Positions 25,971 through 51,579 of a DNA stretch of 64,000 bases are shown piece after piece. A program made the translations under genes and the position numbers. Positions within the stretch are counted from its first letter, which is position 1; each line of letters begins with the position of its first letter. Source of the stretch: an uncultured virus (IMG/VR IMGVR_UViG_3300009157_000004) (Duplodnaviria > Heunggongvirae > Uroviricota > Caudoviricetes); the IMG/VR virus record IMGVR_UViG_3300009157_000004; one strand, 5' to 3'. The notes under the pieces were generated by a model. The model had not been told where the DNA came from. It saw only the letters and a list, made by a program, of their open reading frames with translations, and made no database searches.

Positions 25971-26953
25971 AGATAGCCTTTTCAGCATACATTGAAACTG
26001 CCAAATTGATTGTATTCGGCGCGCTTCTATTATTCGGGATTATCTTCGGTCTGCGTACTTACCATTGGATCGAGTCTAAGTTCGATAACGCCGAAGAGCA
26101 GACCAGGCTAGAGATCGCAGCCGCCCGGGAAGAGTACCGGATTACGATCAACCAGCTCCGGGCCGAGACAAAGGTAGTCAGCGACAAGTCTGAGCTTAAT
26201 GCGCTGCTCAAGGATAATGCGGAGATGCGCAAACTGATCGCCGCAAATCACGAGGAGATTAAAAATGTTGGAACGATTACGGGCTCTGTTAACGAGAATC
26301 GATCATTGGTACTTGGGGATGCGTCGGACCATACATTCAGACCGGGCACAGGCGACCCCGAAGAACAGTATTTCAAAAAGATCTACGCGTCCGAAACAGA
26401 CAAAGAAGGCAAGACTATCTCGATCCCCTGGGCGTGGTCGATCACCTATCCCAACAAGGACGAGAGCGAAAGGTGGAAAACGGGGATATACCCTATAGAG
26501 TATAAGACCAAGATAGTGCAAACCGAACAGGCAGATGGGCAATGGAATACATACGTGGAGGCCTGGGCCGAGAATAATAAAGATTCAGACAGCAAAGGGA
26601 TTAAGCTGCCGCTCAAGGTAGACGCGGAGTTTGTCCAGCTGAAGAAGAGCACGAAAGAGTTCTACTGGTGGGACCCGAGACTGTCACTTGATCTCGACGC
26701 AACTCAGCATCTCGTCGGTGCGGGGCTAAGTCTCAGCTTATCCGGATATGGCCGGACCCACTCGGATCTCGATTTCAAATTCGTGGAGTTCGGGATTATT
26801 CGCAGCAATACTGATTACATTTTCAAGTTCTCACCGGGAGCTTACAATATTGGTAAGTCTCTCCCGATAATAGATAACCTCTATATAGGACCTTTCGTAG
26901 GCTACAATAGACCTGATCTGGTCTATGGCCTGTCACTAAGTGTCCCTTTTTAA
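25967..26953 (+). CDS. spanin candidate: N-terminal TM, coiled coil, C-terminal beta strands
   Basis: between endolysin and holin-like gene; ends YGLSLSVPF. Confidence 0.5.
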   Translation: MKIAFSAYIETAKLIVFGALLLFGIIFGLRTYHWIESKFDNAEEQTRLEIAAAREEYRITINQLRAETKVVSDKSELNALLKDNAEMRKLIAANHEEIKNVGTITGSVNENRSLVLGDASDHTFRPGTGDPEEQYFKKIYASETDKEGKTISIPWAWSITYPNKDESERWKTGIYPIEYKTKIVQTEQADGQWNTYVEAWAENNKDSDSKGIKLPLKVDAEFVQLKKSTKEFYWWDPRLSLDLDATQHLVGAGLSLSLSGYGRTHSDLDFKFVEFGIIRSNTDYIFKFSPGAYNIGKSLPIIDNLYIGPFVGYNRPDLVYGLSLSVPF

Positions 26954-26963
26954 GGAGCTGTAC

Positions 26964-27203
26964 ATGACAGAAGAAATTACACGACCAACTGGTTATATGG
27001 AAGAGGCCCCCGGGGTCAAATCCTTCCTGCGTATGGCGAGCTTTACCTGCCTTCTCCAGGCGCTTATATTCTCCTGGTATATTTTGATTAGGGGCGACAC
27101 TTCCGGCAATGGAATGTATCTGACTGTGATGTTTATGCTTGCGGCATTCGCACCCAAGGTGATCCAGAAATTTGCCGAGAATATGCCGAAGCTTAAACAG
27201 TGA
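26964..27203 (+). CDS. putative holin
   Basis: 79 aa, two TM segments, SFLRM and APKVIQKFAE motifs; AAGGAG RBS. Confidence 0.65.
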   Translation: MTEEITRPTGYMEEAPGVKSFLRMASFTCLLQALIFSWYILIRGDTSGNGMYLTVMFMLAAFAPKVIQKFAENMPKLKQ

Positions 27204-27214
27204 CGAATTTAAAC

Positions 27215-27244
27215 TTGACAACACTACCTCTTACCTCTTAGACT
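27215..27244 (+). promoter_or_regulatory. sigma70-type promoter
   Basis: TTGACA-N18-TAGACT in the intergenic gap after the lysis cassette. Confidence 0.7.
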
Positions 27245-27250
27245 AATCTC

Positions 27251-27305
27251 GCATAGTGATTCTCCTTTCCTTGGCGGGGGTGTGGACTTCAACCATACCC
27301 TCGCT
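27251..27305 (+). ncRNA. candidate small RNA / leader with anti-SD tract and 12-bp hairpin
   Basis: TCTCCTTTCC then GCGGGGGTGTGG/CCATACCCTCGC stem, directly after promoter. Confidence 0.45.
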
Positions 27306-27335
27306 CTATCTTATTAACTATTCGAGGAGGACTTA

Positions 27336-27776
27336 ATGAAACGGTGTGAACCGAGTTTAGCTCTACCCACTATAGATCTATGGGTTAAGAACTATTTTAT
27401 ACCCAGATTCAAATTGGACTGCCAGTGTAAGATCTCTCAGAGTGCTCTCGATAATCTGACAGCTTGGCATTATTATGAGAAACTCTATGATCAGCTGTAT
27501 GAACATCTTATATTCCATTTCGAAACTTCCTTAGCAGGTAACACCACACAGCAATATTTTTATGATCACGTACACGTTCCTGCAACAGCTTGGCAACATT
27601 TTAAACGCGATTATCTGCCGATCTGGTTCAGCAACCTCTTCCCCGTACGAACAAAAGAGATTGTTTGCAAAACCGAGATTATCAATAATTGGATTTGTCC
27701 GCATATCTCTCTGCCAGAAAAGGATGAAGCTCATTTTAGATTTATCGAATCGAAAGGAGGACTTAATGACAACTAA
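27336..27776 (+). CDS. hypothetical protein
   Basis: 146 aa, AGGAGG RBS. Confidence 0.7.
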   Translation: MKRCEPSLALPTIDLWVKNYFIPRFKLDCQCKISQSALDNLTAWHYYEKLYDQLYEHLIFHFETSLAGNTTQQYFYDHVHVPATAWQHFKRDYLPIWFSNLFPVRTKEIVCKTEIINNWICPHISLPEKDEAHFRFIESKGGLNDN

Positions 27777-30297
27777 ATGGACAGCTGACAGTGCGCTTGC
27801 CGCATTCGAGCAATTCGTTGCAAACTACGGTTATCTCAGTGCAAACAATTATGACAAGATAGGCAAGGGTAAATGCGTAGGGTACCCTAATGGACTACCC
27901 TGCCGGCAAGTGCTTCTCACACTCACAGGTAAGACTTGGGTTGATCTAATGGGTGATGCGCCGCAGCCTGCCGCAGATACGCAGGAATATTCTAAGGATT
28001 CACTGGTACGACAGAACAAACAGTTGATGTCCCGGCTCCAGTCACACGAGGAGGCACTCAAACTATTCATCGATAACTGTTCTGCCGAGATAGCCAAGAT
28101 GAAAATCAAACCGGTAAGCATACCGAAGAATCTGCATAGCCGGGAGAACCTGGAGATGCACGGGATGCGCTCAGACGATCACGTGGGGGCCAAGATTACC
28201 CCCCAGTCCACTCAAGGTTTGGGCGGCTACGACGCAGCCACGTATAAGAAGCGGCTCAACCGCTGGGTAGAGAAGGTGCTCACGTTCAAAGAGCAGGACA
28301 GTTCTCCGCTCGGGCTCAATAAACTCGTTCTGTATTATTTGGGTGACATAGTAACAGGAGAGAATATTTACAAGGGGCAATCTTACGCGCTGGATCTGTT
28401 TCTTACAGAGCAGTTATTCTATGCGCTGGAGCTGAATACTAACGTCATCCTGGGCCTTGCCGGAATCTTCAACAGCGTTGAGATCTTCTGTTGCCCCCCT
28501 GAGACACAGATTAAGATGAGCGATCTGAATACCAAAAATATAGCTGATATCCAAAATGGGGACGAAGTTCTTACGCATACCGGAAAGAAGAAGAAAGTTA
28601 CAAAAATAATGTCGCGTCAAGTTTCTGGTAATTCTCTCGTCGAGTTGATGTTTGAGGGCATTTATGATTACCCTCTTCGAGTTACACCTGAGCACCCAAT
28701 TCTCGCCATAAAACGTAACAGTCTTGCCTGTAAGATCGAAAACTGGAAAAAAAGAGATGCAGTATGTTGGCTTAAACCTGAAGATAAAAAATCTTATTAT
28801 CCCTGTAAGAACTGTAAAGAACGGCGAGGTGAGGTTATCCCCCAGTTCTATCCCGCTTCAGAATTAGTAGAAGGGGATTATCTAGCTGTGCCTGTTCAAC
28901 AAGAGTTTGACTTCGATTCTAAATTTGAGGTTATTGATCTATACGATTATCTCGGTACGCGGATTACCAAGGAATTAAAAGGTAGAGTTGGACTCTGGCA
29001 TACACATACAGATAAAATGTTGCCTAGAATTATACCTCTTACCCCAGACTTTATGCGGCTTTTGGGGTATTTTCTAGCGGAGGGGCACCTTATAAGCGGC
29101 AGGGAAAATCGTGTGGGTATCTGTTTCACCTTCAATCAGAAAGAAGAAAATTATCTTTTAGATATTGAAGATATCTTGAAACGTGAATTAGGTTTGTCTT
29201 CTTATCGAATTTACAAACCCGCTTCGCACGTTACGCAACTTATGGTAGGCAGTAACGTGCTTGCGGAGTTATTCGAAATACTTTGTGGGTCTGGTGCGGG
29301 AAATAAACGTTTGCACTCAAAATTGACTTCTTTGCGACCCGCATTATTATTGGAAACTGTTAGAGGATGGTTTTATGGAGACGGGTGCTTTGGGAAGGGG
29401 TCAGAAGGTGACACTCTTGTAGGCGTAACTATATCTAAAACCCTAAAAGAACAACTAGTAACAATTCTTATCAATAACAAAATACCAGTTTCAGTTTCTT
29501 ACCGGAAAGCTGTTAGCAACGTTCGGAATCAGACTCTAAAAAGTATTACCTATCACTCTAAAGCCTACACTCTCGGAGTTTTCGGTAGTTTTATTAATCT
29601 TATCCATAAGGGATTCAGTTCTCAACTTGATAGCCGAAGCCGGATAAAATATTATGATAAGTATCTCTTCACGGAGCTAAAAACTAAAACCGAAGTGGAG
29701 TATTCTGGCCCTGTCTATAATTTTACTGTAGAGGATGACGAGAGTTATATTGCAAATAATATTGCAGTCCACAATTGTGCGATAGGCAATCATGGCCGGC
29801 CTGGAGCGAAGGGCGAGAACCATTACCTGACCAATTTCGACTATCTGCTGTACCGAATGCTTCAGATGTCGCTCCGGTCGCAGGAGAACGTCAAGGTATT
29901 CGTCAGTGAATCGCCTGAGATGCTGGTGCGCAACGGGGACTTTAACTTTCACTTGTCCCACGGCGAGAAGGTAATGAGCTATTCGGGTACGCCTTATTAT
30001 GGCCTGGATAGAAAGTACCGTAAGCTCGCGAATCTATACAACATGATCGTTAATTATCAGCTTATCGGGCACTTCCATTCCCCTGCCCAGCTCAGTGAGC
30101 ATATACTTATTAATGGGAGTCTGGTGGGAGGGGATGACTTGAGTATCAACCGGATGTCGCAGTCCACCGTGCCCAGCCAGAAGATCTTCTATATGCATCC
30201 GAAGCACGGGATTAACCGGGTCAGTGATCTGTACTTAGATACGATGCCGATACTGACACCGGATCTGGATGGGATCTATACACCAAATATTAAGTGA
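27766..30297 (+). CDS. calcineurin-like metallophosphoesterase precursor containing an intein
   Basis: SDDHVG, LGDIVTGE, GNHGR, SHGE, GHFH motifs; AGGAGG RBS favours ATG 27766 over 27562. Confidence 0.85.
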   Translation: MTTKWTADSALAAFEQFVANYGYLSANNYDKIGKGKCVGYPNGLPCRQVLLTLTGKTWVDLMGDAPQPAADTQEYSKDSLVRQNKQLMSRLQSHEEALKLFIDNCSAEIAKMKIKPVSIPKNLHSRENLEMHGMRSDDHVGAKITPQSTQGLGGYDAATYKKRLNRWVEKVLTFKEQDSSPLGLNKLVLYYLGDIVTGENIYKGQSYALDLFLTEQLFYALELNTNVILGLAGIFNSVEIFCCPPETQIKMSDLNTKNIADIQNGDEVLTHTGKKKKVTKIMSRQVSGNSLVELMFEGIYDYPLRVTPEHPILAIKRNSLACKIENWKKRDAVCWLKPEDKKSYYPCKNCKERRGEVIPQFYPASELVEGDYLAVPVQQEFDFDSKFEVIDLYDYLGTRITKELKGRVGLWHTHTDKMLPRIIPLTPDFMRLLGYFLAEGHLISGRENRVGICFTFNQKEENYLLDIEDILKRELGLSSYRIYKPASHVTQLMVGSNVLAELFEILCGSGAGNKRLHSKLTSLRPALLLETVRGWFYGDGCFGKGSEGDTLVGVTISKTLKEQLVTILINNKIPVSVSYRKAVSNVRNQTLKSITYHSKAYTLGVFGSFINLIHKGFSSQLDSRSRIKYYDKYLFTELKTKTEVEYSGPVYNFTVEDDESYIANNIAVHNCAIGNHGRPGAKGENHYLTNFDYLLYRMLQMSLRSQENVKVFVSESPEMLVRNGDFNFHLSHGEKVMSYSGTPYYGLDRKYRKLANLYNMIVNYQLIGHFHSPAQLSEHILINGSLVGGDDLSINRMSQSTVPSQKIFYMHPKHGINRVSDLYLDTMPILTPDLDGIYTPNIK
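28489..29775 (+). mobile_element. intein with LAGLIDADG homing endonuclease (429 aa)
   Basis: starts CCPPETQI, block B TPEHP, LLGYFLAEG and RGWFYGDG motifs, ends VYNFTVEDDESYIANNIAVHN followed by Cys; visibly AT-richer than flanks. Confidence 0.92.
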
Positions 30298-30306
30298 GAG
30301 GGGAGT

Positions 30307-30501
30307 ATGGCTACACTAAAATTCACAAATCTCAAAGGTGAGAAAATCGAGATCGTGTTGCTGGCTTACTGTTTTTGTGACGGAAAGAGTATAGACGACT
30401 GGGATAGCCGTTTCGAGAGAACTTTCATGGATATGATTCTCGAAGAAGCCCAACAACAAGATAAGCTGGAAGGTAGAACAACCATTTACGAAAGATCTTA
30501 G
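30307..30501 (+). CDS. hypothetical protein
   Basis: 64 aa, GGGGAG RBS. Confidence 0.6.
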   Translation: MATLKFTNLKGEKIEIVLLAYCFCDGKSIDDWDSRFERTFMDMILEEAQQQDKLEGRTTIYERS

Positions 30502-30502
30502 A

Positions 30503-30883
30503 TTGAGGCTAAGTATGACCTTCGCACTCTCCTATTCCAAGACGAATTACTACCTCGCCAGGATACGCAAATACCTGCGCGAGGAGGATCATTTTGTCAA
30601 GCTTAATAGTAAACTCAAATGGCAGAACAAGGCAAGGGAGTTTGACCCTACGATCACTGCGATTCGAAAAGGCGATAAGATTATAATGAGTTCAGGATTC
30701 GAAGTGTTGCAGCTTAACCCGTGTAAGGATATAATGGCAACACTGATACACGAATCACTTCACGGACTTTATTATGACACGCCCGAGAAGCGGATTATTG
30801 AATTGGAGAATGCGATTATGGCAAAGGCGACTGATAGACAGTTTAAGAATTTACTTAAGATAATGGTTGACAAATTGATATAG
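30503..30883 (+). CDS. small HExxH protein (possible zincin)
   Basis: TLIHESLH motif followed by downstream E. Confidence 0.55.
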   Translation: MRLSMTFALSYSKTNYYLARIRKYLREEDHFVKLNSKLKWQNKAREFDPTITAIRKGDKIIMSSGFEVLQLNPCKDIMATLIHESLHGLYYDTPEKRIIELENAIMAKATDRQFKNLLKIMVDKLI

Positions 30884-30896
30884 CGCAGTGTAGTAT
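30867..30896 (+). promoter_or_regulatory. sigma70-type promoter
   Basis: TTGACA-N18-TAGTAT at end of previous ORF, ahead of structured leader. Confidence 0.6.
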
Positions 30897-30972
30897 TGTC
30901 CCCACGTACGACTGTACTTCGATATCCGTAGAGTACAGTATCTGGGATAAAAGCTGTATACAAAGGAGAATT

Positions 30973-31206
30973 ATGCAAGTTAGAATCTTAACAGACGGAA
31001 AAATATATCGCATTCAGCGTAAGCGCTGGTACGGGTGGAGATGGTTGGGTTTCCGGAAAACACAGGAAGGGAGCTGCTCGTCCGAATGCGGGCCTACCTC
31101 TTTCTATTACGCTTGGGATTTTACCAGCAGGGAAGCATGTATAACTTGGCTCGGAGTACAATATGGGAAGTCTGCTGAACTAGTCAGTTCATGGAGGGAA
31201 TGCTAA
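30973..31206 (+). CDS. hypothetical protein
   Basis: 77 aa, AAGGAG RBS, YRIQRKRWYGWRW. Confidence 0.65.
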   Translation: MQVRILTDGKIYRIQRKRWYGWRWLGFRKTQEGSCSSECGPTSFYYAWDFTSREACITWLGVQYGKSAELVSSWREC

Positions 31207-31451
31207 TGCCTAAGTTAATAATCGAGATCCGATTAAACATAACCTCAGATGCGATCCAGGTCGAGAGCGTGATCCAGGAGGAAGAGATTCCTAAGCCGGT
31301 GAGTAACGCACTCGAACCTTGTATAGAAGATCTGGACGAATTTAAGCCTATTACTCTTCTGCTTCCTGACACTACGCCTACACCGTATGAATTTATACGT
31401 GCCAGAACGCTCCAAGAGATGCAGAGGTGTGCTGGTGTATCAGTTGACTAA
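31191..31451 (+). CDS. hypothetical protein
   Basis: 86-aa ORF in tightly packed operon. Confidence 0.5.
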   Translation: MEGMLMPKLIIEIRLNITSDAIQVESVIQEEEIPKPVSNALEPCIEDLDEFKPITLLLPDTTPTPYEFIRARTLQEMQRCAGVSVD

Positions 31452-31651
31452 TACACTAAGACACATACTCCTATGGGTCTTCTGGCTCTGGCTTGTATCC
31501 TATAACATCTTCCTCAGCAAGGTGCTCTGGGAGACATGGGATAGACTCGATGCACTTGAACACCGCGAGCCCCGGCCTTCTATTTATATCGAAGAGGGGA
31601 CGATTTATGGCGGTAAGTCCGAGATGTATATTACAACAAAGGAGAATACGA

Positions 31652-31879
31652 ATGCCGTACAAAAAGATTAGTATAAAGATCAATAACAGGGAGAGTGTGA
31701 GTATACCAGTCGAACAACTCATCGACGTTGAAGACGTAGCGGCGTTATCCCGTGCAGTAGAACAATGCGCTAATCTCGATCATTATTTCGGTGTTATTGC
31801 TTTAACCCCAGAATACGAGTACGTGTTGGGAGAACTCGATGGCCGCAAAGTCCTCGTCCCCTACGACCCAAACAAATAA
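31652..31879 (+). CDS. hypothetical protein
   Basis: AAGGAG RBS then MPYKK within ORF 31493..31879. Confidence 0.55.
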   Translation: MPYKKISIKINNRESVSIPVEQLIDVEDVAALSRAVEQCANLDHYFGVIALTPEYEYVLGELDGRKVLVPYDPNK

Positions 31880-31899
31880 TCTATCAAGGAGAGCTTACT

Positions 31900-32439
31900 A
31901 TGGATGTAAAGGTCGGTTCAGATAACAGTCTTCAGATCGCACAACTCGAAGAAGCAGACTTCCGCGTTTCAGCTAGTGATACCAATGGCCACAGTGTTCG
32001 AGTTCAATATCGCTCACAGCCCGGGATCTTACAGCAGATCGCACGGATCATCAGCAGCAAGAAGTTCCCGCTCAAAGATGCAAGTGAGTTTCATAGACTC
32101 GCAGACGCGTTATTACTCAAGGCTCTGGAGAATTTACGCTCTGGGATACCGAGCATAATGGCGACAGTTGATGCAGTCAATGCGATAATAATGGAAGAGG
32201 AGTATTACCAGGACTTCCTCACTTTATTCGAGAAGCTTAATAAGCGTGTCGCAGAGCATATGGGACGCGGGGCCAAGGGCGAGGCGGTCAGACTCGTGCT
32301 CAAGGTTACCGAGAAGTTACGCGCAATGCCCGAGGGGTACTGGAAGGATCAGTATACCAAAGAGCTCACGATGCGCTGGGGCGGACTGATTGAAGAGGCC
32401 GGGCAGGTTAATCTGTCGCAGATGTTGGGAGAAGAGTAA
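31900..32439 (+). CDS. hypothetical protein
   Basis: 179 aa, AAGGAG RBS. Confidence 0.7.
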   Translation: MDVKVGSDNSLQIAQLEEADFRVSASDTNGHSVRVQYRSQPGILQQIARIISSKKFPLKDASEFHRLADALLLKALENLRSGIPSIMATVDAVNAIIMEEEYYQDFLTLFEKLNKRVAEHMGRGAKGEAVRLVLKVTEKLRAMPEGYWKDQYTKELTMRWGGLIEEAGQVNLSQMLGEE

Positions 32440-32440
32440 T

Positions 32441-32641
32441 ATGGTCAGAGAGTGCCCAGAATGCAAAGAGAGAATGTATAACCAGAATAGTGCTAGACAG
32501 CTATTTCTTACGGGTGCGCGTGGAGGGGATACTTGGTTCTGGAGAGAGGCAACTCTTTATTATTGCGACGCCTGCATGAACTATTTTAGTGAGGTCTCAG
32601 ACGTTATAACTTCGAAACGTTTACGACGAGAGGTGAAGTGA
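32441..32641 (+). CDS. small zinc-ribbon protein
   Basis: CPEC...CDAC; likely start MVRECPEC. Confidence 0.55.
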   Translation: MVRECPECKERMYNQNSARQLFLTGARGGDTWFWREATLYYCDACMNYFSEVSDVITSKRLRREVK

Positions 32642-32644
32642 GCA

Positions 32645-32917
32645 ATGAACTTGCCCTCATTCATGGTCTGGATGTCTTTTCGTTATTGCTTAGGCCGGAG
32701 CTCAGTCGCCCCTGGTATGTGGGTAGATTGGGCTAAAAAGAACTGGAAACGTATTCCTAGGCACGACCGTGATCTGATCGGCACAGAACTGGAACAAGCG
32801 TTTGAGCGTGACGACCGCGCACGGGTATCCTTTAAAGGGGGGATTCTCCCACTCGGTCAGATTTATGATCGTCAGCAGTGGGAGAGAGTCAGAGCACTTT
32901 ATAAAAAGGGGGAGTAA
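32645..32917 (+). CDS. hypothetical protein
   Basis: 90 aa with FRYCLGRSS motif seen in small phage proteins. Confidence 0.65.
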   Translation: MNLPSFMVWMSFRYCLGRSSVAPGMWVDWAKKNWKRIPRHDRDLIGTELEQAFERDDRARVSFKGGILPLGQIYDRQQWERVRALYKKGE

Positions 32918-33162
32918 TGGGGACCGTCCGAGACAGTCTTATATCCGCAATGTTTCCAGAAGGGGGCAAGGATATTGCTATCGACTTCCCACTTGAAGCG
33001 CGATGGCTACTCGACGACATCGAGAAAGTACGTATTAAACGCTTACCCGAAGGCCCACCTTTTCTCTACGAGATCCGCCCTTACCCAAATGAGGAGTATG
33101 CGGAGAACTGGTGCCACTGGTTAGGGTATTACTATTTAACAGAGAGGGGATTAACATGTTAG
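32917..33162 (+). CDS. hypothetical protein
   Basis: 81 aa, coupled to neighbours. Confidence 0.55.
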   Translation: MGTVRDSLISAMFPEGGKDIAIDFPLEARWLLDDIEKVRIKRLPEGPPFLYEIRPYPNEEYAENWCHWLGYYYLTERGLTC

Positions 33163-33362
33163 TCGAATTCAAAGCAGAGATCGCGCCGGGTGTAACTCAC
33201 TCGGAGATTATAGACACCGAGGAGCTTCGGCGCGAACACGGGATCTCGTATCGATGGGACGAGTATAGCGAGAGCTTCCGCAATTCATTAGTATTCGACT
33301 GGTGGGAGAAACTCAATAGCCGCGTGAAGTTGAGTTACGAAGAGGTCATGCCGCGTGGTTGA
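33156..33362 (+). CDS. hypothetical protein
   Basis: GAGGGG RBS then MLVEFK. Confidence 0.55.
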   Translation: MLVEFKAEIAPGVTHSEIIDTEELRREHGISYRWDEYSESFRNSLVFDWWEKLNSRVKLSYEEVMPRG

Positions 33363-34920
33363 TTATCCGGCTCCGTACGAGTTTGGATTACCGGAGAAGT
33401 TCAAGAGCTGGTATCCACGCCAATTTGAAGCGGTGCAAGAGGTTCTCAGCAAACCGAATCGCTTCTTTACAGGTATCCTGAGTACTGGCTCCGGAAAATC
33501 GCTAACGTATATGGCGGCTGCTCAGATGGCCGGCTACCGTACCGCTATCCTAACTGGCACTAAAGCACTACAAACACAACTGCTCAGGGATTTTGCGCCT
33601 ATGGGCTTGACAGATGTAAGAGGGAAAAATGCCTACTATTGTCTTCTCGAATCAGACGGAACGAGGTGCAACGAAGGACTCTGTATCACTGGTTTCCAAT
33701 GTCCTGAACGCCTTTCGAAAACCTGTCCATATTACAGGGCGATTGACCGGGCAATCCAATCTCAGCTCGTCATTACCAACTACCACTTCTGGATGTATAA
33801 TCACCTATATGGAGAAGGGCTCGGAAAGTTCGATCTTCTGGTTCTCGACGAAGCCCATAACATTCCTCAGATTGTGGCTGATTTCCTTACTGTTACGCTT
33901 CCTCGCAATCATCCTGTAACATGTGGCTTCTTACCCAAACTGATCTCGGATAAGCTGGAGTTCTGGCAATCCTGGGCCAGAGAGACAGAACCATACGTAG
34001 ATAAAGAGATCGAGTATATCCGGGGCCAAGCTGCGAGTACCGGGGGCAGAGTAACGTCCGCGTCTCGAAGCGCACTCGCGCAGTTGAACTCACTGAAGAA
34101 CTCACTCACTCAGATCCCCAAGATGGACAAGGACTGGATACTCGAGATCTCCGAACATCAGATCCAATTCGCCCCGAAGTGGCCCAAGGAATACTGCGAA
34201 GGGGTACTGTTCAAGAATATACCTAATGTCGTGTTTATGTCCGCTACAGTGTGCAAGAAGACGATTGATCTGCTGGGGGTTAAGCCGGAATCAAACACCA
34301 TTGTCGAATATCCTTCGACATTCCCTGTCAAAAACCGTATGCTGTGGCACATACCCACGCTGAAGATGAATAACAATAACACAGATACAGATCAGAAACG
34401 CTGGTTGTCAAGGATAGATCAGATCTTAGACGGCAGATTAGACAGGAAGGGGATCATACATACGGTGAGTTATAAACGCCGGGACTATTTGTTAACGCAT
34501 AGCCGGCACCGGGACCTGATGCTGAGTCATGCCCCAGATGATCTGGAGAAGGTAGTGAGTAAGTTCAAACAGAGCTTGGAGCCTGCGATCCTGGTGAGCC
34601 CTAGTCTGACTACCGGTTATGACTTTGACCATGAGTCGTGCAGGTTTCAGATTATAGGCAAGGTTGCATTCCCGGATATGTCGAGCCCGATACTCAAAGC
34701 AAGATTGGAGGATGATCCGGACTATTCTGCGTATCTTGCGATCCAATCGCTTATTCAGACAGTAGGCCGGGCTACACGGGCACCGGATGACTGGAGCGAG
34801 AACTTTATTATAGACGACAATGTGCGGTGGATATTAAGTGCGTACAAAGATTTCAGCCCAGCGTGGTTCAGAGCAGCATTTAAAACAACAGATATAATAC
34901 CGACAGCGAGGGAGTTGTGA
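33355..34920 (+). CDS. DinG/XPD-family SF2 helicase
   Basis: STGSGKS Walker A, Cys cluster (Fe-S-like), LDEAH, MSAT, QTVGRATRAPDD. Confidence 0.88.
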   Translation: MVDYPAPYEFGLPEKFKSWYPRQFEAVQEVLSKPNRFFTGILSTGSGKSLTYMAAAQMAGYRTAILTGTKALQTQLLRDFAPMGLTDVRGKNAYYCLLESDGTRCNEGLCITGFQCPERLSKTCPYYRAIDRAIQSQLVITNYHFWMYNHLYGEGLGKFDLLVLDEAHNIPQIVADFLTVTLPRNHPVTCGFLPKLISDKLEFWQSWARETEPYVDKEIEYIRGQAASTGGRVTSASRSALAQLNSLKNSLTQIPKMDKDWILEISEHQIQFAPKWPKEYCEGVLFKNIPNVVFMSATVCKKTIDLLGVKPESNTIVEYPSTFPVKNRMLWHIPTLKMNNNNTDTDQKRWLSRIDQILDGRLDRKGIIHTVSYKRRDYLLTHSRHRDLMLSHAPDDLEKVVSKFKQSLEPAILVSPSLTTGYDFDHESCRFQIIGKVAFPDMSSPILKARLEDDPDYSAYLAIQSLIQTVGRATRAPDDWSENFIIDDNVRWILSAYKDFSPAWFRAAFKTTDIIPTAREL

Positions 34921-35060
34921 GAGACGGATTGTACCAAGTAACCTATAAAGGAATCTGCGCAGCTTTTGTGCTAAAGACCGATAGAGTCATACGCTGTGCA
35001 CCTATTCTATACAGTCGCTTAAGTTTCTGGAAAACTATTGCGAGGTTTGTAACAGAATGA
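34917..35060 (+). CDS. small hypothetical protein (47 aa)
   Basis: GTG start, RDGLYQVTYKGICAAFV...CAPILY...; overlaps both neighbours by 4 nt. Confidence 0.55.
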   Translation: MRDGLYQVTYKGICAAFVLKTDRVIRCAPILYSRLSFWKTIARFVTE

Positions 35061-35383
35061 GGATCTACTTAGCCGGACCATTCTACCACAAGTGCCCTGC
35101 GATAATGGAGATGCGGTTCTTGATGCTTAATTATAAAGCAGGAGAGCTGATCCGCGATGGCCATATCGTGTTCAGCCCTATCAGTCATTCATGGCCTATA
35201 CAGAAAGAGGGGTTGACGGAGCACACGCATGAGGTATGGCTGAAGCAGGACTACGCATTCATCGAGTGGTGCGATGAGCTGTGGGTACTCGATCTGCCAG
35301 GGTGGGAGGAATCATTCGGCGTAAGTAGAGAAGTAGAGTATGCAACTTCTCTCCACAAACCTGCTCAGTTAATAGGGTTCTAA
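35057..35383 (+). CDS. nucleoside deoxyribosyltransferase-like protein (DUF1937/DUF4406 type)
   Basis: IYLAGPF...FSPISHS...CDELWVL..PGWEESFGVSREV. Confidence 0.75.
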   Translation: MRIYLAGPFYHKCPAIMEMRFLMLNYKAGELIRDGHIVFSPISHSWPIQKEGLTEHTHEVWLKQDYAFIEWCDELWVLDLPGWEESFGVSREVEYATSLHKPAQLIGF

Positions 35384-35384
35384 T

Positions 35385-35870
35385 ATGGAAACTACAATTT
35401 ACGAATTCCAAGGCTTATACCGCTATTTATCTAATTTCTACCCTTTGCGTTTTCCTATAACAGATGAGTATGGAATAAGCTATCCAACAGTCGAACATGC
35501 TTTTCAAGCCGCTAAAACTCTTGATAGAGGCCGTCGCGCAGACATCTCCAATAGAAAAACGCCTTCGGAGGCAAAGAAGCTGGGTCGGACTCTGAGTTTA
35601 CGCCCCGATTGGGAAGACGTTAAAGTAGAACTTATGTATGGGTTTCTCACACAGAAATTTGTCCTGAATGAAGATCTTCGAATTAAGTTGTGTGCTACAG
35701 GTTCAGCGCAACTGATAGAAGGTAATACATGGGGGGATAGATTCTGGGGGATCTGCAACGGTACAGGTTTGAATATACTGGGGGAATGCTTAATGGCTAT
35801 ACGAGAGGGGTTTAGATATGGAACAACTCGTCGCCGATATAGTCGAGAAGATCTACGGCTCTCAAAATAA
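35385..35870 (+). CDS. NADAR (YbiA-like) family protein
   Basis: LSNFY...YPTVEHAFQAAK...AKKLGR...LIEGNTWGDRFWG...NILGECLM. Confidence 0.9.
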   Translation: METTIYEFQGLYRYLSNFYPLRFPITDEYGISYPTVEHAFQAAKTLDRGRRADISNRKTPSEAKKLGRTLSLRPDWEDVKVELMYGFLTQKFVLNEDLRIKLCATGSAQLIEGNTWGDRFWGICNGTGLNILGECLMAIREGFRYGTTRRRYSREDLRLSK

Positions 35871-36015
35871 GTTCTTGACAGAATACACTCGAAGTCCTAA
35901 AATAGTGCTTCGTAGGGTGGCAGGTCGTATGAAAGTGGTGCCTATTAATCTGCGGACAATTCTCAGGGAGTTCTTTGAGGGTCTCGCAGATGGGCACCCG
36001 GACTTAAAAGCATAA
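35818..36015 (+). CDS. hypothetical protein
   Basis: 65 aa, GAGGGG RBS. Confidence 0.5.
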   Translation: MEQLVADIVEKIYGSQNKFLTEYTRSPKIVLRRVAGRMKVVPINLRTILREFFEGLADGHPDLKA

Positions 36016-36035
36016 CAATCTAAAGGAGGATTAAC

Positions 36036-36296
36036 ATGGACGAACAACGAATCACCAAAGCAGTATTAGCCGAAATCAAACAACAACTCGAGGGGCTGGT
36101 AGATACCTACAGCGACATGCTTAACACAGCGTTTATTCGCAACGACACCGACAAGTTCGAGATCAAATTCAAGACAGTGCTCGAAGCGGATAACGCAGCG
36201 ATGAACGTGACGACCGAGATCTCATTCAAACCTATGCCGAATATCAAGGAGAAGCTGGAGAGCAAGGTAGAGGGAGGGGCACAGACAAATGGCTAA
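36036..36296 (+). CDS. hypothetical protein
   Basis: 86 aa, AGGAGG RBS. Confidence 0.65.
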   Translation: MDEQRITKAVLAEIKQQLEGLVDTYSDMLNTAFIRNDTDKFEIKFKTVLEADNAAMNVTTEISFKPMPNIKEKLESKVEGGAQTNG

Positions 36297-36483
36297 CGCA
36301 AAACTCGCGGATATGGAAAGAATGCTTAATCAGATCGTCGATGCCTGGGAATCCTTAGCAGGGGGCAAACAGTACTCTGTGCGAGTATTCGCAGACTGGA
36401 TGAATGCGGATATGAAACCCGCAATGGACAGAGCGCGGAGACTCCTTGGTAGACAAATTCCAGGGGAAGGGGATGACGAATGA
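36289..36483 (+). CDS. hypothetical protein
   Basis: 64 aa, coupled to neighbours. Confidence 0.6.
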   Translation: MANAKLADMERMLNQIVDAWESLAGGKQYSVRVFADWMNADMKPAMDRARRLLGRQIPGEGDDE

Positions 36484-37721
36484 AAATCATCAAACTTGAA
36501 TCGCAAAACGTCAAGAAGCTCAAGGCCATCTCGATCACACCTGAATCGAACATGGTTGTCATTGGCGGCAATAACGAGCAGGGCAAGACCAGTACACTCG
36601 ATTCGATCATGTTCGCATTGGCTGGTAAGAAATCCTACGACAAGGCCCCGGTGCGCAAAGGTACGAAGTCAGCCAAGATCTCGTTAGATCTGGGCGAAGT
36701 CGGCTTACCTGAGATCCTGATCACGCGGACTATAACCGAGTCAGGCGGTGGCCAGATCTCTATCACCAATGCAGAGGGTCAGCAGTTCGCGTCGCCGCAG
36801 TCAATGCTCGACAAGTTAACCGGTAAGCTCACATTCGATCCGTTTGCATTCGCGCAGATGGAAGAGAAGAAGCAGCTGGAGACGCTTAAGCAGTTAGTCG
36901 GGCTGGACTTCACAGCATTAGATATACAGCGGCAGCAGATCTATTCGGCCCGGACTGTAGTTAACGCGGAAGTGAAATCGTTGAAAGCACGGGTCGATTC
37001 AATCCCGGTTCAGAATGCGCCTGATGAGGAAGTAAGCGTATCAGATCTGACGAATAAGCTCGGCGCAGCACAGACAGTCAACGACAACAACGAGGCCCTG
37101 CGCAACCAGATCAAAGACATCACAGCCGCAGTGGTGCGCACTGTCGCTGTTATCGATCAGCTCGAAGCCCAACTGAAAGCGGAACGTCGCGATCTCGAAC
37201 AGAACCAGAGCCTGTTAGATTCGATGACAAGCCTGGAGCTCATTGACGAACCTACTGCCCCGATCCTCCAGCAGATCCAGGACGCAGACGCGACCAATCA
37301 GAAAGTCCGTCTGAAGAAACAGCGCAAGGAGATGGAGAAGGAGCACTCGGCCAAGTTAATCGAATCCGAAGAGCTGACCCGGCAGATAGACGAGATCGAT
37401 CAGCAGAAATCGGATACGTTGTCCGCAGCGAAGTTCCCTGTCGAGGGGCTGAGTTTCGATGAGACCGGTGTATCGTTTAATGGTATCCCCTTTCCGCAGT
37501 GCAGCGGAGCCCAGCGTCTCCGTATCTCAGTCGCTATGGGTATGGCACTTAATCCGGATCTGCGCGTACTGCTGCTTCGTGATGGGAGCCTGCTCGATTC
37601 TGAGAACCTTAAGCTGATTACCGAGATGGCAGACACTGAGAACTTCCAGATATGGATGGAACGCGTAGGGGACGGGAAGGAGTGCACGGTCGTGCTGGAA
37701 GAGGGCGAGGTGCGGGGATGA
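36480..37721 (+). CDS. SMC/Rad50-like ABC ATPase with coiled coil
   Basis: GGNNEQGKTSTLD Walker A, long coiled coil, CSGAQ signature, LLRDGSLLD. Confidence 0.85.
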   Translation: MKIIKLESQNVKKLKAISITPESNMVVIGGNNEQGKTSTLDSIMFALAGKKSYDKAPVRKGTKSAKISLDLGEVGLPEILITRTITESGGGQISITNAEGQQFASPQSMLDKLTGKLTFDPFAFAQMEEKKQLETLKQLVGLDFTALDIQRQQIYSARTVVNAEVKSLKARVDSIPVQNAPDEEVSVSDLTNKLGAAQTVNDNNEALRNQIKDITAAVVRTVAVIDQLEAQLKAERRDLEQNQSLLDSMTSLELIDEPTAPILQQIQDADATNQKVRLKKQRKEMEKEHSAKLIESEELTRQIDEIDQQKSDTLSAAKFPVEGLSFDETGVSFNGIPFPQCSGAQRLRISVAMGMALNPDLRVLLLRDGSLLDSENLKLITEMADTENFQIWMERVGDGKECTVVLEEGEVRG

Positions 37722-37981
37722 GCAATCTGAATCTGGATGCACAGTCTAAGCATTATGATATCGGCGGCGTATCAGTCCTCGACGTGATCAAGGTCAAACT
37801 CAGCGGTGCTAATCTCGATCCATATGAGGGCTTCCTGCTCGGCAACATAATTAAGTACGCACTCAGGTTGCCTTATAAAGGTACACCTTACCGTGATGCG
37901 GAGAAGATCGAAATCTATGCACAGAAACTAATGGAAGAATTGAAAGATCTTGACAACCCTACTAATCAAACAGTAGACTAG
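37718..37981 (+). CDS. DUF3310-like protein
   Basis: HYDIGGVSVLDVI...GFLLGNIIKYALR..YKG...DAEK. Confidence 0.75.
   Translation: MSNLNLDAQSKHYDIGGVSVLDVIKVKLSGANLDPYEGFLLGNIIKYALRLPYKGTPYRDAEKIEIYAQKLMEELKDLDNPTNQTVD
37950..37979 (+). promoter_or_regulatory. sigma70-type promoter
   Basis: TTGACA-N18-TAGACT, sharing CTTGACAACnCTAC and TAGACTA with the promoter at 27215. Confidence 0.7.
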
Positions 37982-37985
37982 GGCT

Positions 37986-38053
37986 TTGAGCAGCCGGGTT
38001 CCCCCTCCTCCAACCTGATACCCAGGTTCCCGCAAGGGCGGCTGCTTCTCAAC
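37986..38053 (+). ncRNA. candidate structured small RNA with C-rich anti-SD loop
   Basis: GAGCAGCCG/CGGCTGCTT closing stem, CCCCCTCCTCC tract, CCC-GCAA-GGG tetraloop hairpin. Confidence 0.5.
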
Positions 38054-38081
38054 TAAACTGAATGTTTTTGAAATAATATCC

Positions 38082-38225
38082 TGCTGTTCGGGAGAGGCAT
38101 TAAGCCCGAAGGTGAGCAGTAAATATAAGATAAGATAGAATAGTACAACTGTTTTACTTATGTTTATAAAAGCCGCTTTAAGTGGTTTCCTTTGGGTGCG
38201 CTCAAAGTGCCTCTCCCGAACAGCA
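38082..38225 (+). ncRNA. candidate multi-stem structured RNA
   Basis: perfect 18-bp inverted repeat TGCTGTTCGGGAGAGGCA/TGCCTCTCCCGAACAGCA enclosing three further stems. Confidence 0.6.
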
Positions 38226-38239
38226 TGATCGGTAGTAAG

Positions 38240-38340
38240 CTGGCAGTGGCGGAATGGATACGCAGGTCGGATAAATAGAGCAGGACAAATGTAAAAGACC
38301 ATCGGCCTCCTGCACACAGGTTCGAATCCTGTCTGCCAGT
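38240..38340 (+). tRNA. tRNA-like element with aberrant, enlarged anticodon region
   Basis: acceptor CTGGCAG/CTGCCAG, D arm GCG-GAATGGATA-CGC, T arm ACAGG-TTCGAAT-CCTGT; no canonical 7-nt anticodon loop, no encoded CCA. Confidence 0.65.
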
Positions 38341-38365
38341 ATTCTTTAACCAAGGAGCGACTTAG

Positions 38366-38806
38366 TTGACAATCGACTGGCAAGGAGTTTCAAAACGATG
38401 TGGCTTCAACGATATCCGGGAACTGATAATAGTCAAATACTATCTGGAGGAGAAGTCAATCGAACTCTGCGCAGAAGAGTGCGCCGTAGATCCACGCTCT
38501 TTCGGGCACCTGATGGAATACGAGAACTTCCCTCGTCGCGGCGCACATCGGATTATTAAGCACGGTTTCTACTGTCAGGTCTGCGGCAAACATCGAGCCT
38601 GGCACGATCTTAAATTCGTCCGGAATGCCGAGTGCACCCCGGATAAACCTTACAGCGCGCACTTTCTCTGTCACTGGTGCGCCAGAAAGTATAAGAAAGG
38701 AGGAACGAGAGAGGGCCAAACGCCCAAGATACGCAAAGAAGAGCTTGAACTGATCGAGCGTGAGTTAGCTGAAAAGCATCAAGATGTAAAATTCGATAAC
38801 TATTAA
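38366..38806 (+). CDS. putative DNA-binding protein (HTH-like plus zinc finger)
   Basis: AAGGAG RBS with TTG start; SIELCAEECAVD helix, CQVC...CHWC. Confidence 0.6.
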   Translation: MTIDWQGVSKRCGFNDIRELIIVKYYLEEKSIELCAEECAVDPRSFGHLMEYENFPRRGAHRIIKHGFYCQVCGKHRAWHDLKFVRNAECTPDKPYSAHFLCHWCARKYKKGGTREGQTPKIRKEELELIERELAEKHQDVKFDNY

Positions 38807-38819
38807 TAGGAGAATAAAC

Positions 38820-39584
38820 ATGAGTGAAGAAGTAAAAGCCATATCGTTGAATCCTGATGATTTCGTCGCAGGAGGACTGATTGATGACATCATCGCAAAA
38901 TTGCAGCACTCTTTCGTGATGTACGATTACGAAGGAAAAGCAGACGCTCCGGCCCCGTGCCTCAAGCTGGAGATGGTCGATAACGAATCGGGCGAGGAGT
39001 ACCCGGTCCAGTATCTCAGCGCGGGAAGTGCCCAGAACTGGGTCCCGAGCGATGATGCAAAAACACTGGTCCCGGTTGGCAGCAAAACCGCCATGACCAA
39101 GAACTCCAATCTGGCCATCTATTTGACCGAGATGATCAATGCCGGCTTCCCCAAGAACCAGCTGACCACATCTATTGCTTGCTTGGACGGAGTAGTTGCG
39201 CACATGATACGCAAAGAGCTCCCCAAGAGAGGCAACGTGTCTCAGACCCAGACCGGCAAAGATGGCAAAGAGTATGCGAAGTCGATCCTCGTCCCGGATC
39301 GTATCGTCAAACTGCCCGGAGAGAAGGCAGGCGCAGTCAAGGGTAAGAAGACCGCAGCGACAGACGATGCAGTGAAGGAAGCCGCGACTACATTCGTGCT
39401 CGAACTGCTGGGTGAGAAGAACGGCAAGTTCCAGAAGAAAGAGATCCCGGCAGCGTTGGTGAAGGTTCCGGTCGCAGTCAGGCCGCAGGTAATGGCGATG
39501 GTATATGCCAATGATAAGTTCCTGTCCGAGGGCGGCGGTGGACTGTGGACTTACGCGAACGGAGAAGTGAAGAGCGTAGGGTAA
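38820..39584 (+). CDS. hypothetical replication-module protein (possible ssDNA-binding protein)
   Basis: 254 aa, strong RBS, GC3-biased codons, location among recombination genes; function is a guess. Confidence 0.6.
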   Translation: MSEEVKAISLNPDDFVAGGLIDDIIAKLQHSFVMYDYEGKADAPAPCLKLEMVDNESGEEYPVQYLSAGSAQNWVPSDDAKTLVPVGSKTAMTKNSNLAIYLTEMINAGFPKNQLTTSIACLDGVVAHMIRKELPKRGNVSQTQTGKDGKEYAKSILVPDRIVKLPGEKAGAVKGKKTAATDDAVKEAATTFVLELLGEKNGKFQKKEIPAALVKVPVAVRPQVMAMVYANDKFLSEGGGGLWTYANGEVKSVG

Positions 39585-39596
39585 CAAAAGCTGGAG

Positions 39597-39707
39597 AGGC
39601 TAATGTTTTGGGGACATTAAAGTAGCCTTGCTTGGCGGCGAGTGCCGGAATGCCTATATTATGTGGGGGCTTTATCGGAGGTCGATGACCGAACTCCGGC
39701 ACTTTTT
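39597..39707 (+). terminator. structured intergenic element ending in terminator-like stem and T tract
   Basis: AGGCTA/TAGCCT hairpin then AGTGCCGGA/TCCGGCACT stem followed by TTTT. Confidence 0.5.
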
Positions 39708-39721
39708 AACAAGGATCGAAT

Positions 39722-39901
39722 ATGCAGACCAATCATTTCACAGTCTATCTATCAATCGAACGCAGAGCTGTTGTACTTTGTAACAAGGGTCGGTCTATTG
39801 CGCGTTTCACCAACCCTGATGAAGTAGAGCGTCTCTGTTCCGAGATGTTGAAGTATGCGAAGGAAGTGCGTGAGAACGCAAACGGTAAAAAGTTAGAATG
39901 A
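39722..39901 (+). CDS. hypothetical protein (59 aa)
   Basis: AAGGA RBS, MQTNHFTVYLSIERR...GKKLE*; below ORF-track cutoff. Confidence 0.55.
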   Translation: MQTNHFTVYLSIERRAVVLCNKGRSIARFTNPDEVERLCSEMLKYAKEVRENANGKKLE

Positions 39902-40929
39902 GGAGGGAGGATATGCCAATACCACAAATAGAAAACTGTTCAAATTGTCGCCACAGATCCACTAACCCGGAAGCGAGATGGTGCCTGTTTATAGGCGATT
40001 GCGTAGGGAATGATAAATGGGAACTAGCCAAGCCTGAGACAGACGTGGTGTCTGCTCGGAACTACCATGACTGCGGAACTTGTAGGCACAGTTTTTTACA
40101 TAACCGCGGGATAAATATATGCCGCTGTGTCGCAGAATGCTGTGCTACCCCTACTAAAGATAGATGGCAGCCTTACGAACCTGACAGGGTTGTAACCGCA
40201 GAGGTCACAGGTGCCTGGATAGACAAAGCACCTCGGATACATACTCCGCAAGAGATTCGGATAGCTGAAAGTAAAGAGGACCTGAAACTGTACACAGGAG
40301 CGCGTGGAGGCGGTACTAAGTCTACTCTTAGCCCGCCCAGGTTTAACTCTGCAATCACTACGCGTTTTGGAGCACCTGAGCTCGAAACCTTCTATGTATT
40401 CCTCTACGACGAGAAGCGCAGGCCCCGTGTCACAATCTGCTATCTGTTCGATGGTGCTTATTATCATCGCGGTATCGCGATCTGTGCACCTGAAGATTAC
40501 GGCAAGTTTACTAAGAAAGAGGGTAGAATACGCGCTCATCGCCGTGCTGCCATTGCGCATTACAGATTTAAAAATTCAGGCAGAACTGAACCTGAAGGAA
40601 AGATTCGAAAGGAACTCCGAAAGCTATGGGCTATTCTTCCAGGAGCTATCCCCTCCGCTACCTTCAGATTTAAATATCTTCCTCAAATCAAATGGTCTGA
40701 GTTGGCCCCCTGGGAACGGGAATCTATTAGCCGCCAGTGGAAGGCACAAAAGGTTAAAGCCCAGACGGTGTTCCAGACCAGATTGATCAGCACCTGCTGC
40801 GGCGCACCTGTTCGCGTCGAGACGGGTAACGATTTCTTTGGCCATAAATCCAAACCGGACATCTGTACTGCCTGGTACGTCTGCGAACTCTGCCACAATC
40901 CCTGCGATTTCCTAGTGGTGTCCGCATGA
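39898..40929 (+). CDS. mosaic Cys-rich hypothetical protein
   Basis: two CxxCRH...C..KxxW modules, central domain, C-terminal STCCGA...CELCHNPC ribbon. Confidence 0.65.
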   Translation: MRREDMPIPQIENCSNCRHRSTNPEARWCLFIGDCVGNDKWELAKPETDVVSARNYHDCGTCRHSFLHNRGINICRCVAECCATPTKDRWQPYEPDRVVTAEVTGAWIDKAPRIHTPQEIRIAESKEDLKLYTGARGGGTKSTLSPPRFNSAITTRFGAPELETFYVFLYDEKRRPRVTICYLFDGAYYHRGIAICAPEDYGKFTKKEGRIRAHRRAAIAHYRFKNSGRTEPEGKIRKELRKLWAILPGAIPSATFRFKYLPQIKWSELAPWERESISRQWKAQKVKAQTVFQTRLISTCCGAPVRVETGNDFFGHKSKPDICTAWYVCELCHNPCDFLVVSA

Positions 40930-41111
40930 CCATACCACGATATGTAATCGAGGATGCACTTAAGCAATGGCCTGAAATCGACATCACACAGTTACGTTGC
41001 GGGTGCGCAGATTGCCCCCAGAATACAGCTTGCGAACTTGCCTGGGATCTTTACAACTGTTATACCGAAGATGGATCAGTAATTGATACTGGTTGTCTAT
41101 GTGAAAAATAA
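40926..41111 (+). CDS. small Cys-rich protein
   Basis: CGCADCP...CELAWDLYN...CLCEK. Confidence 0.6.
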   Translation: MTIPRYVIEDALKQWPEIDITQLRCGCADCPQNTACELAWDLYNCYTEDGSVIDTGCLCEK

Positions 41112-41746: not shown

Positions 41747-41985
41747 TTGAGGCAAAATCGATGAAGAAACACATAGCAGTAAAGGAGATTCCTTATTACC
41801 CTTGTTTAAAGATTGCCGCAGACGGCTGTATCGTACTTTTTACAACTCTTACCACAGGGGTATGTCTTAAAGAAGGCGATGGAAGCTGCAACCATCCTGG
41901 GATAGTCGGGGAGATCGACGAATGGGAATACGAAGATTTCACGTTATACACCGGAATGCTCGGATTATCGAATAGGAGGGAATAA
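41743..41985 (+). CDS. hypothetical protein
   Basis: 80 aa, AGGAGG RBS. Confidence 0.6.
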   Translation: MIEAKSMKKHIAVKEIPYYPCLKIAADGCIVLFTTLTTGVCLKEGDGSCNHPGIVGEIDEWEYEDFTLYTGMLGLSNRRE

Positions 41986-42797: not shown

Positions 42798-42809
42798 GGG
42801 GTCGGAGCG

Positions 42810-42983: not shown

Positions 42984-42993
42984 GGAGGATTAA

Positions 42994-45925: not shown

Positions 45926-46084
45926 TTTGTGCCTCCAATTTACGTAATTGTTTGCGTAACCGCCGGTTGTCTCTCCGTAACTCTGCTTCACGATCACGAA
46001 CTTCGAGAAAGCCAGAACAAGGAGGATGACACTCTAAACCGTGATTACACGGTATGGTTTTATAAATATACTCATTTCGTTTGG

Positions 46085-51568: not shown

Positions 51569-51579
51569 ATAGTTAATGT

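Follow-up and report, generated by a model that had tools for sequence, protein, structure and literature searches.

The PL and PR promoters of lambda and the A promoters of T7 are σ70-type early or middle promoters of phages that use the host RNA polymerase, and lambda and HK022 are also phages with antitermination signals. In the early transcripts of T4 gene e and soc, as in the ROSE and fourU thermometers, an anti-Shine–Dalgarno (anti-SD) leader occludes the ribosome binding site in cis; RsaE/RoxS and RNAIII, the latter through its UCCC loops, are C-rich small RNAs (sRNAs) that target SD sequences. The species 1 and 2 RNAs of the T4 tRNA cluster are stable RNAs co-transcribed with phage tRNAs, and RNase III hairpins lie between the early cistrons of T7. 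Here we analyse two loci in a 64 000-nucleotide (nt) stretch of DNA, referred to below as the window, from an uncultured virus (IMG/VR record IMGVR_UViG_3300009157_000004) that is a novel tailed phage. At each locus a promoter-like site (P1 at locus 1, P2 at locus 2) is followed by a pyrimidine-rich tract complementary to SD sequences, and a first-pass annotation, made from the sequence alone, proposed that the pair were co-regulated sRNAs, or leaders. With middling confidence, we favour two host-type promoters that head transcription units, each with a cis-acting 5′ leader, over two matched trans-acting RNAs. Positions are those of the window, and features lie on the plus strand unless otherwise stated.

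At locus 1, 132 nt separate the structural module from the replication module. The last open reading frame (ORF) of the structural module stops at 27203, and the first gene of the replication module, P0001 (ORF 27336-27776, 146 aa), has the SD sequence GAGGAGG (27324-27330) ahead of ATG 27336, the two together spanning 27324-27338. With transcription presumed to start just behind P1, the predicted 5′ leader of this gene is approximately 85 nt long (27251-27335), and no ORF with a credible start was found within it. The anti-SD tract described at this locus, GCATAGTGATTCTCCTTTCC, is present at 27251-27270, as is the hairpin reported to follow it, at 27273-27305, although the latter has 13 base pairs and not the 12 originally counted. 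Eight of these are G-C pairs, the hairpin has a predicted energy of -23.2 kcal/mol and a tail of CTATCTTATT, and none of 200 shuffled sequences folded as well (z = -3.65). In the minimum-free-energy (MFE) structure of 27251-27345 (-30.2 kcal/mol, z = -2.76, one of 200 shuffles as good), a helix is predicted between the polypyrimidine run TTCTCCTTTCCTT (27260-27272), which belongs to the anti-SD tract, and GAGGAGGAC (27324-27332): G27258 and 27260-27267 are paired with 27324-27332, and the 5′ CAU with the AUG. Ensemble predictions for RNAs with 5′ ends at 27249-27257 gave a probability of only 0.01-0.03 that the SD is unpaired, with 75-96% of the SD pairing made to the CU tract. When the 5′ 22 nt were removed the value rose to 0.59, and none of 500 random 22-mers brought it as low as the native tract. 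For the 5′ ends assumed here, the SD is thus predicted to be paired with an upstream tract in the same RNA, and the predicted pairing of the CU tract with the SD of the very next gene supports the leader form of the original proposal for locus 1; its other form, a co-regulated pair of trans-acting anti-SD sRNAs, was not supported, as discussed below.

In the mechanism that we propose for locus 1, the 5′ pyrimidine tract (UUCUCCUU) and the 5′-terminal CAU would base-pair with the first gene's SD (GAGGAGGA) and its AUG, with the 13-bp G+C-rich hairpin acting as a clamp that holds the anti-SD and SD strands together. Translation of the 146-aa gene would then be kept low or gated, and the mRNA would gain a base-paired 5′ end; the clamp hairpin may also block read-through from the late operon. 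The predicted pairing of an upstream pyrimidine tract with both SD and AUG is what locus 1 has in common with the leaders of T4 gene e and soc and with the ROSE and fourU thermometers. It differs from them in that the pairing spans a 13-bp clamp hairpin, in that no alternative promoter omitting the tract was found, in that the leader is not conserved in relatives and in that no melting is predicted between 15 and 50 °C, over which the unpaired probability of the SD changed only from 0.001 to 0.031, unlike the melting expected of an RNA thermometer. An identical 14-nt string, GGAGGACTTAATGA, comprising SD, spacer and ATG plus one base, stands before two consecutive genes, at 27326-27339 (that is, at P0001) and at 27756-27769; because of the second copy, the true start of the following exonuclease gene is likely to be 27766, within the end of the 146-aa ORF.

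The motif said to be shared by the two loci, CTTGACAAC(A/C)CTAC-N11-TAGACTA at 27214-27245 and 37949-37980, was recovered exactly as described, in two copies only within the window, both on the plus strand. A promoter scan called both sites σ70-like (TTGACA-18-TAGACT), with 10 of 12 consensus positions matched and an exact -35, which agrees with the σ70 pattern of hexamers near TTGACA/TATAAT at a spacing of 16-18 nt. In P1 (27215-27244), TTGACA (27215-27220) and TAGACT (27239-27244) are separated by an 18-nt spacer that holds a tandem ACCTCTT ×2 (27226-27239); P2 (37950-37979) has TTGACA at 37950-37955, again an 18-nt spacer, and TAGACT at 37974-37979. An A/T-rich stretch, CGAATTTAAA (27204-27213), lies directly upstream of the -35 of P1, behind the TGA stop codon (27201-27203) of the last structural-module gene, and resembles GAATTGAAAGAT upstream of locus 2. 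P1 and P2 would both be σ70-type promoters for the host RNA polymerase, of the single design TTGACA-18-TAGACT, within the replication and nucleotide-metabolism module, and P1, standing immediately behind a co-directional structural operon, would be the promoter that the replication module needs. They resemble lambda PL/PR and the T7 A promoters in the -35 TTGACA, the TAnnnT -10, the position at the start of a module and the occurrence of several sites per genome; the differences are the recurring 18-nt spacer, the extra AAC-N-CTAC block and the same non-consensus -10 in both, activity here being predicted.

How far the two sites are twins is a separate matter. The chance expectation for the motif (0.01) was calculated with a pattern taken from the two sites themselves and is therefore circular. 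The window contains 24 strong σ70-like sites (at least 10/12), compared with 12.6 in shuffles, and among the 90 same-spacer pairs that these form P1 and P2 have the highest identity (23/40); of 200 shuffled windows, 8% contained a pair with at least 23 identities. Outside the hexamers their identity is an unremarkable 11/28 (P = 0.72), and when all 117 sites of at least 9/12 were considered, an unrelated pair reached 24/38 and 25 of 40 shuffles attained at least 23. A relaxed scan for the motif gave 15 matches, against 11.2 in shuffles, and no further good copy. By these shuffle and pairwise-identity tests the likeness of P1 and P2 is marginal, barely above that of any two strong promoter-like sites, while each stays a strong promoter-like site that is sensibly placed. 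Other intergenic promoter-like sites are TTGACA-18-TAGTAT (30867), TTGACA-17-TAAAAT (35875) and TTGACA-18-TAAAAT (51568, minus strand), and five of the seven best intergenic candidates have an 18-nt spacer. A third TAGACTA -10, the one match of interest from the relaxed scan, occurs on the minus strand at 54207-54242 (TTTGCA-18-TAGACTA), in a divergent gap and facing the minus-strand early genes.

At locus 2, the motif was said to precede a non-coding structured stretch. Structure does lie downstream, but the motif itself falls within the last 33 nt of the DUF3310 gene (37718-37981, 87 aa), the ATG of which overlaps the stop of the AAA_23 gene (ATGA) and the stop of which (TAG, 37979-37981) overlaps the -10 of P2. 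The Pfam domain of the DUF3310 protein stops 19 residues short of the C-terminus, so what the motif encodes is a tail outside the domain. The following 384 nt (37982-38365) contain no credible ORF; a 151-aa minus-strand ORF at 37928-38383 was rejected as a gene, having only a TTG start and no family match and overlapping both the 3′ end of the DUF3310 gene and the tRNA-like element described below. The predicted fold of 37986-38400 is very stable, at -152.5 kcal/mol compared with -113.7 ± 6.2 kcal/mol in shuffles (z = -6.23, none of 100 as good). It begins with a predicted three-way junction (37988-38047, z = -3.08) with closing stem GAGCAGCC/GGCTGCTT and the hairpins AACCTG-ATACC-CAGGTT and CCC-GCAA-GGG. 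The polypyrimidine run TTCCCCCTCCTCC (37999-38011) lies on a junction strand and is predicted to be mostly unpaired, which bears out the suggestion that CCCCCTCCTCC, at 38001-38011, can sit in a loop: nine of 12 positions have unpaired probabilities of 0.79-1.00 and the other three of 0.28-0.43. No cis partner was predicted for this C tract, its pairing with the SDs of the next gene amounting to 0.0-0.004.

Beyond the junction lies a long hairpin of approximately 150 nt (38078-38229), formed by a 22-nt inverted repeat with 95% complementary arms (38078-38099 and 38208-38229) that enclose 108 nt with an AT-rich core (25% GC at 38110-38169); it might serve as an RNase III-type site or, alternatively, as an element at the DNA level. 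A genome search with a 19-nt inverted-repeat arm gave seven matches in unrelated taxa with unrelated flanks, which is the level of chance, and none of these seven loci fits any Rfam family. In the window as a whole, Rfam 15 gave no match at gathering score, only sub-threshold ones (E 0.68-7). The terminator scan found no terminator-like site after the junction, so transcription should continue through a further 300 nt of structured RNA into a gene. This gene is the ORF P0002 (38366-38806; 38352-38806 with its SD, AAGGAG), with a start at TTG 38366 or ATG 38398 and two CxxC pairs; its resemblance to helix-turn-helix (HTH) and σ70-region-4 proteins scored below 0.9 and is a lead only. On the reading that we favour, P2, embedded in the non-conserved C-terminal tail codons of the DUF3310 gene, would drive the 384-nt structured non-coding region and then the mRNA of a zinc-ribbon protein, the island presenting first a three-way junction with an exposed C-rich strand and then a long hairpin of the kind cut by RNase III. 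At both loci, RNAs would start shortly behind the -10; repression in cis is proposed for locus 1, and the locus-2 RNA might be processed.

The same island contains a tRNA-like element at 38239-38341, with a 7-8-bp acceptor stem (CTGGCAG, 38240-38246; CTGCCAG, 38333-38339), a 3-bp D stem, a T arm of canonical form (ACAGG-TTCGAAT-CCTGT) and an anticodon loop enlarged by a 24-nt insertion. ARAGORN in intron mode made this single call in the window, compared with none in 10 shuffled windows. The 3′ half of the element had no match in 185 579 species genomes, so an attP-type copy of the end of a known tRNA is excluded. The element could be a processing signal for RNase P or RNase Z. In the 415-nt MFE structure the 3′ acceptor strand pairs otherwise, with ACTGGCA at 38378-38384, in a region (38334-38384) that encloses the SD and TTG start of the next gene, so that the tRNA-like fold and occlusion of the P0002 start would be mutually exclusive. 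Locus 2 has several features in common with the T4 tRNA region and the T7 RNase III sites, namely a non-coding island between genes, its own promoter-like site, a tRNA-shaped element and a long imperfect hairpin; it differs from them in the 24-nt anticodon-loop insertion, the 3-bp D stem and the failure of the element against the Rfam tRNA model.

Relatives were sought via the AAA_23 protein, giving five viral loci and 80 metagenome loci. The only syntenic relatives were three loci (L002, L003 and L021) with 55% aa identity in the AAA protein. In all three a P0002 homologue directly follows the AAA gene, so the DUF3310 gene and the non-coding region (37718-38365) are an insertion in the window phage. 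The exonuclease of the relatives is intein-free and has no 146-aa gene before it, the orthologue in L003 being colinear (a 447-aa open frame), and its divergent transcription would begin at TTGACA-18-TATAGT, the leader there being unstructured and approximately 40 nt long; the nearest relative also has a divergent TTGACA-18-TAAAAT. To judge from these sequences, the promoter design is common to the lineage and neither leader is shared. Wider searches were similarly negative. The full motif in IMG/VR, and the 328-aa structural protein used to find relatives there, matched only an identical 17-kb contig, which is also the nearest database record to the window; blastn in distant mode against GenBank phages gave no match to 26900-28400 or 37982-38365; blastn-short of both non-coding regions against the relatives' loci (including L021-L100) gave nothing beyond the identical contig; and 79 loci around other DUF3310 genes contained no tRNA-like element and only chance 14-nt matches. 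The anti-SD seed, which a trans-acting sRNA of this kind would be expected to share with its homologues, was therefore conserved in none of these sets. The titles and abstract openings covered by our literature searches gave nothing relevant to these elements.

Several of our results weigh against promoters with cis-acting leaders at both loci. At locus 1, 5′ ends at 27244-27248 gave an unpaired probability for the SD of 0.03-0.25, and when ORF starts were compared over a uniform window (-90 to +12), using a differently placed 5-nt SD index, P0001 ranked only 26th of 94 (0.287). Shuffles of the same 22 nt were equally low in 6% of 500 trials, showing that composition, rather than order, does most of the SD sequestration, and read-through RNAs keep the SD paired (0.03-0.04 unpaired), mostly with other partners. 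Sequestration of the SD persists from 15 to 50 °C in the predictions, which offer no obvious switch. At locus 2, cis-acting leaders leave the C tract unexplained, since it has no predicted cis partner, and the tRNA-like element is a weak one: it was not called by default ARAGORN, it failed the threshold of Rfam RF00005, with the T arm alone matching (14 bits against a gathering score of 29), and its cloverleaf is absent from the 415-nt MFE structure, with a z of -1.6 for its own fold. The locus-1 leader, the P0001 gene and the DUF3310 gene with its non-coding region are all missing from the syntenic relatives (55% aa identity), so neither structure is conserved.

The locus-1 hairpin is also the best terminator-like match between 26 and 40 kb. 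As an intrinsic terminator its tail, CTATCTTATT, barely satisfies a rule of five T in eight and is U-poorer than the TTTTCGTTT of the terminator at 45272-45318, and the hairpin is a possible weak terminator for the upstream late operon. Carried to both loci, this would mean that the structures belong to the upstream genes and that the promoter resemblance is incidental, the 27273-27305 hairpin being a terminator or 3′ stabiliser of the structural operon and the 37988-38047 junction a 3′-end structure of the DUF3310 transcript. The structures do begin within approximately 70 nt (locus 1) or 7 nt (locus 2) of a stop codon, and the similarity of P1 and P2 is only marginally above chance (8% of shuffles). 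We nevertheless think this unlikely, because a promoter that does not depend on the late operon is required for the replication module, P1 being the sole strong candidate in the gap; because strong σ70-like sites are present at twice the expected frequency and are placed in intergenic gaps; because a relative has the same promoter design at an orthologous gene; and because terminator-like sites, as a class, are not enriched (9 compared with 10.7, and 14 compared with 15.5). A clear intrinsic terminator is found at 45272-45328, where a 15-bp stem (45272-45318) is followed by TTTTCGTTT; it comes after a small ORF beyond the replication module, at the point where plus-strand genes converge on the minus-strand block.

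A 13-nt polypyrimidine run follows each -10, at 27260-27272 (16 nt on) and at 37999-38011 (20 nt on). The plus strand carries seven runs of at least 13 nt, only four of which (1438, 6797, 27260 and 37999) are within plus-coded territory, the sense strand of which is purine-rich, and the run is a firmer feature common to both sites than is their promoter likeness. The RNAs downstream of the two promoters have no other sequence or structure in common. The two 146-aa ORFs downstream of the promoters were considered as paralogues in a duplicated cassette, which was rejected (BLASTP E 8.4).

Rare runs at similar distances behind both promoters are also what would be expected of two co-regulated trans-acting anti-SD sRNAs that block initiation at phage or host SD regions. 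P1 would then give an RNA of approximately 60 nt, in which a single-stranded CU seed of 22 nt is followed by the 13-bp hairpin and by a tail containing U, and P2 one of approximately 70-100 nt displaying CCCCCUCCUCC. Locus 1 has the classic layout of promoter, unstructured seed and scan-flagged terminator-like hairpin with tail CTATCTTATT, so that a discrete transcript is possible there, and the locus-2 C tract is predicted to be exposed; however, the locus-1 tail is U-poor compared with the TTTTCGTTT of the 45272-45318 terminator, and no terminator-like site follows the locus-2 junction. In a duplex scan of the 22-nt 5′ segment of locus 1, the best non-self partner was at 53647 on the minus strand (-24.5 kcal/mol), which is a start region, as are two of the top partners for locus 2 (32908 and 39889), but most of the top 18 partners of locus 1 lay elsewhere, and the scan thus revealed no preferential complementarity to translation start regions. 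The layouts that had been put forward as targets, AAAGGAGAAT followed by ATG, do exist at 30962-30977 and 31638-31654, although the duplex ranking places neither in the top 18 for the locus-1 tract. Moreover, strong SDs are complementary to any CU tract, and the best-supported partner of the locus-1 tract is the SD of its own gene. The loci resemble RsaE/RoxS and RNAIII in having exposed C/U-rich tracts complementary to GGAGG, and differ from them in having no Rfam match, no locus-2 terminator, no target enrichment and no homologues. With the downstream RNAs unlike one another, locus 2 lacking a terminator, start regions not preferred and no conservation, a co-regulated trans-acting pair appears distinctly unlikely. 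Another gap without a listed gene (314 nt, 39585-39897) closes with an unusually long SD (GAGGAGGGAGGA) before ATG 39898, with which the locus-2 C tract forms one of its better predicted duplexes (-23.8 kcal/mol).

A bolder, phage-specific version of trans action, for which we see very little likelihood, is that the shared promoter variant (extended -35 block plus TAGACTA) launches RNAs that act in trans on SDs and reshape translation during infection, the first exposed segment of each mimicking the 3′ tail of 16S rRNA (CUCCUUUCC and CCCUCCUCC). The locus-2 segment would then be part of a composite stable RNA made up of the junction, the RNase III-type hairpin and the tRNA-like element with its enlarged anticodon loop, the tRNA-like part perhaps serving as a decoy for host defences that target tRNA.

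That a pyrimidine run accompanies the promoter in a corresponding position at the two loci might alternatively mean that the tracts are protein-binding or polymerase-modifying signals in an early transcribed region, such as a ribosomal protein S1-type enhancer or standby site, a nut/put/Q-type antitermination signal or the target of an RNA-binding regulator of the phage; the extended spacer block AAC-N-CTAC would then be a factor-binding site. The conserved block in the spacer adjoins the -35, the gene after locus 2 provides the sub-0.9 HTH and σ70-region-4 leads, and the locus-1 hairpin followed by CGCTCTATCTTATTAAC is loosely like the boxB-boxA order of the consensus. This would seem the least probable of the explanations considered here: with only two copies no motif can be built, the identity outside the hexamers is not significant, the boxA resemblance requires an insertion, the downstream genes are replication and not late genes, and no antiterminator homologue was identified in the window.

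If the leader reading is true, locus 1 would be a case of ordinary phage gene control, with a host-type promoter and, at the head of the replication module, a leader that occludes the SD, mainly useful in annotating an otherwise unknown phage lineage. The main interest lies in locus 2, a lineage-specific, very strongly folded 384-nt non-coding island with an exposed anti-SD-like tract and a tRNA-shaped element, for which, as far as database comparison can tell, no current RNA family or homologue accounts.

Around the two loci, the gene map comprises structural genes at 1-27203, including a tail spike-like gene (23079-25376); the replication and nucleotide-metabolism module at 27336-45117; a minus-strand block with a family A DNA polymerase at 45566-54072; and the small and large terminase, portal and major head protein genes at 54455-64000. 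The replication module encodes an exonuclease with a Hint/LAGLIDADG intein, a helicase, a DUF1937 protein, a NADAR protein, an AAA_23/SbcC-like protein, the DUF3310 protein and a Sak4-like protein. In the exonuclease gene (27766-30297), the Hint/intein-splicing domain and LAGLIDADG insertion occupy approximately residues 243-672 of the 843-aa form. GC skew tracks gene direction alone across the window, and locus 2 was rejected as a replication origin, there being no turn in the skew at 38 kb. The structural module also contains a 2352-aa ORF (10964-18022), the only matches of which are PHROGs of unknown function. Five TGGAC(A/G) repeats occur between 54332 and 54402 (at 54332, 54342, 54352, 54372 and 54397), immediately ahead of the small terminase gene in the divergent gap. 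Three have the form TGGACA(C/T)C, and two make up an exact tandem of TTTGGACATC; the repeats may be an operator array or a pac-type site.

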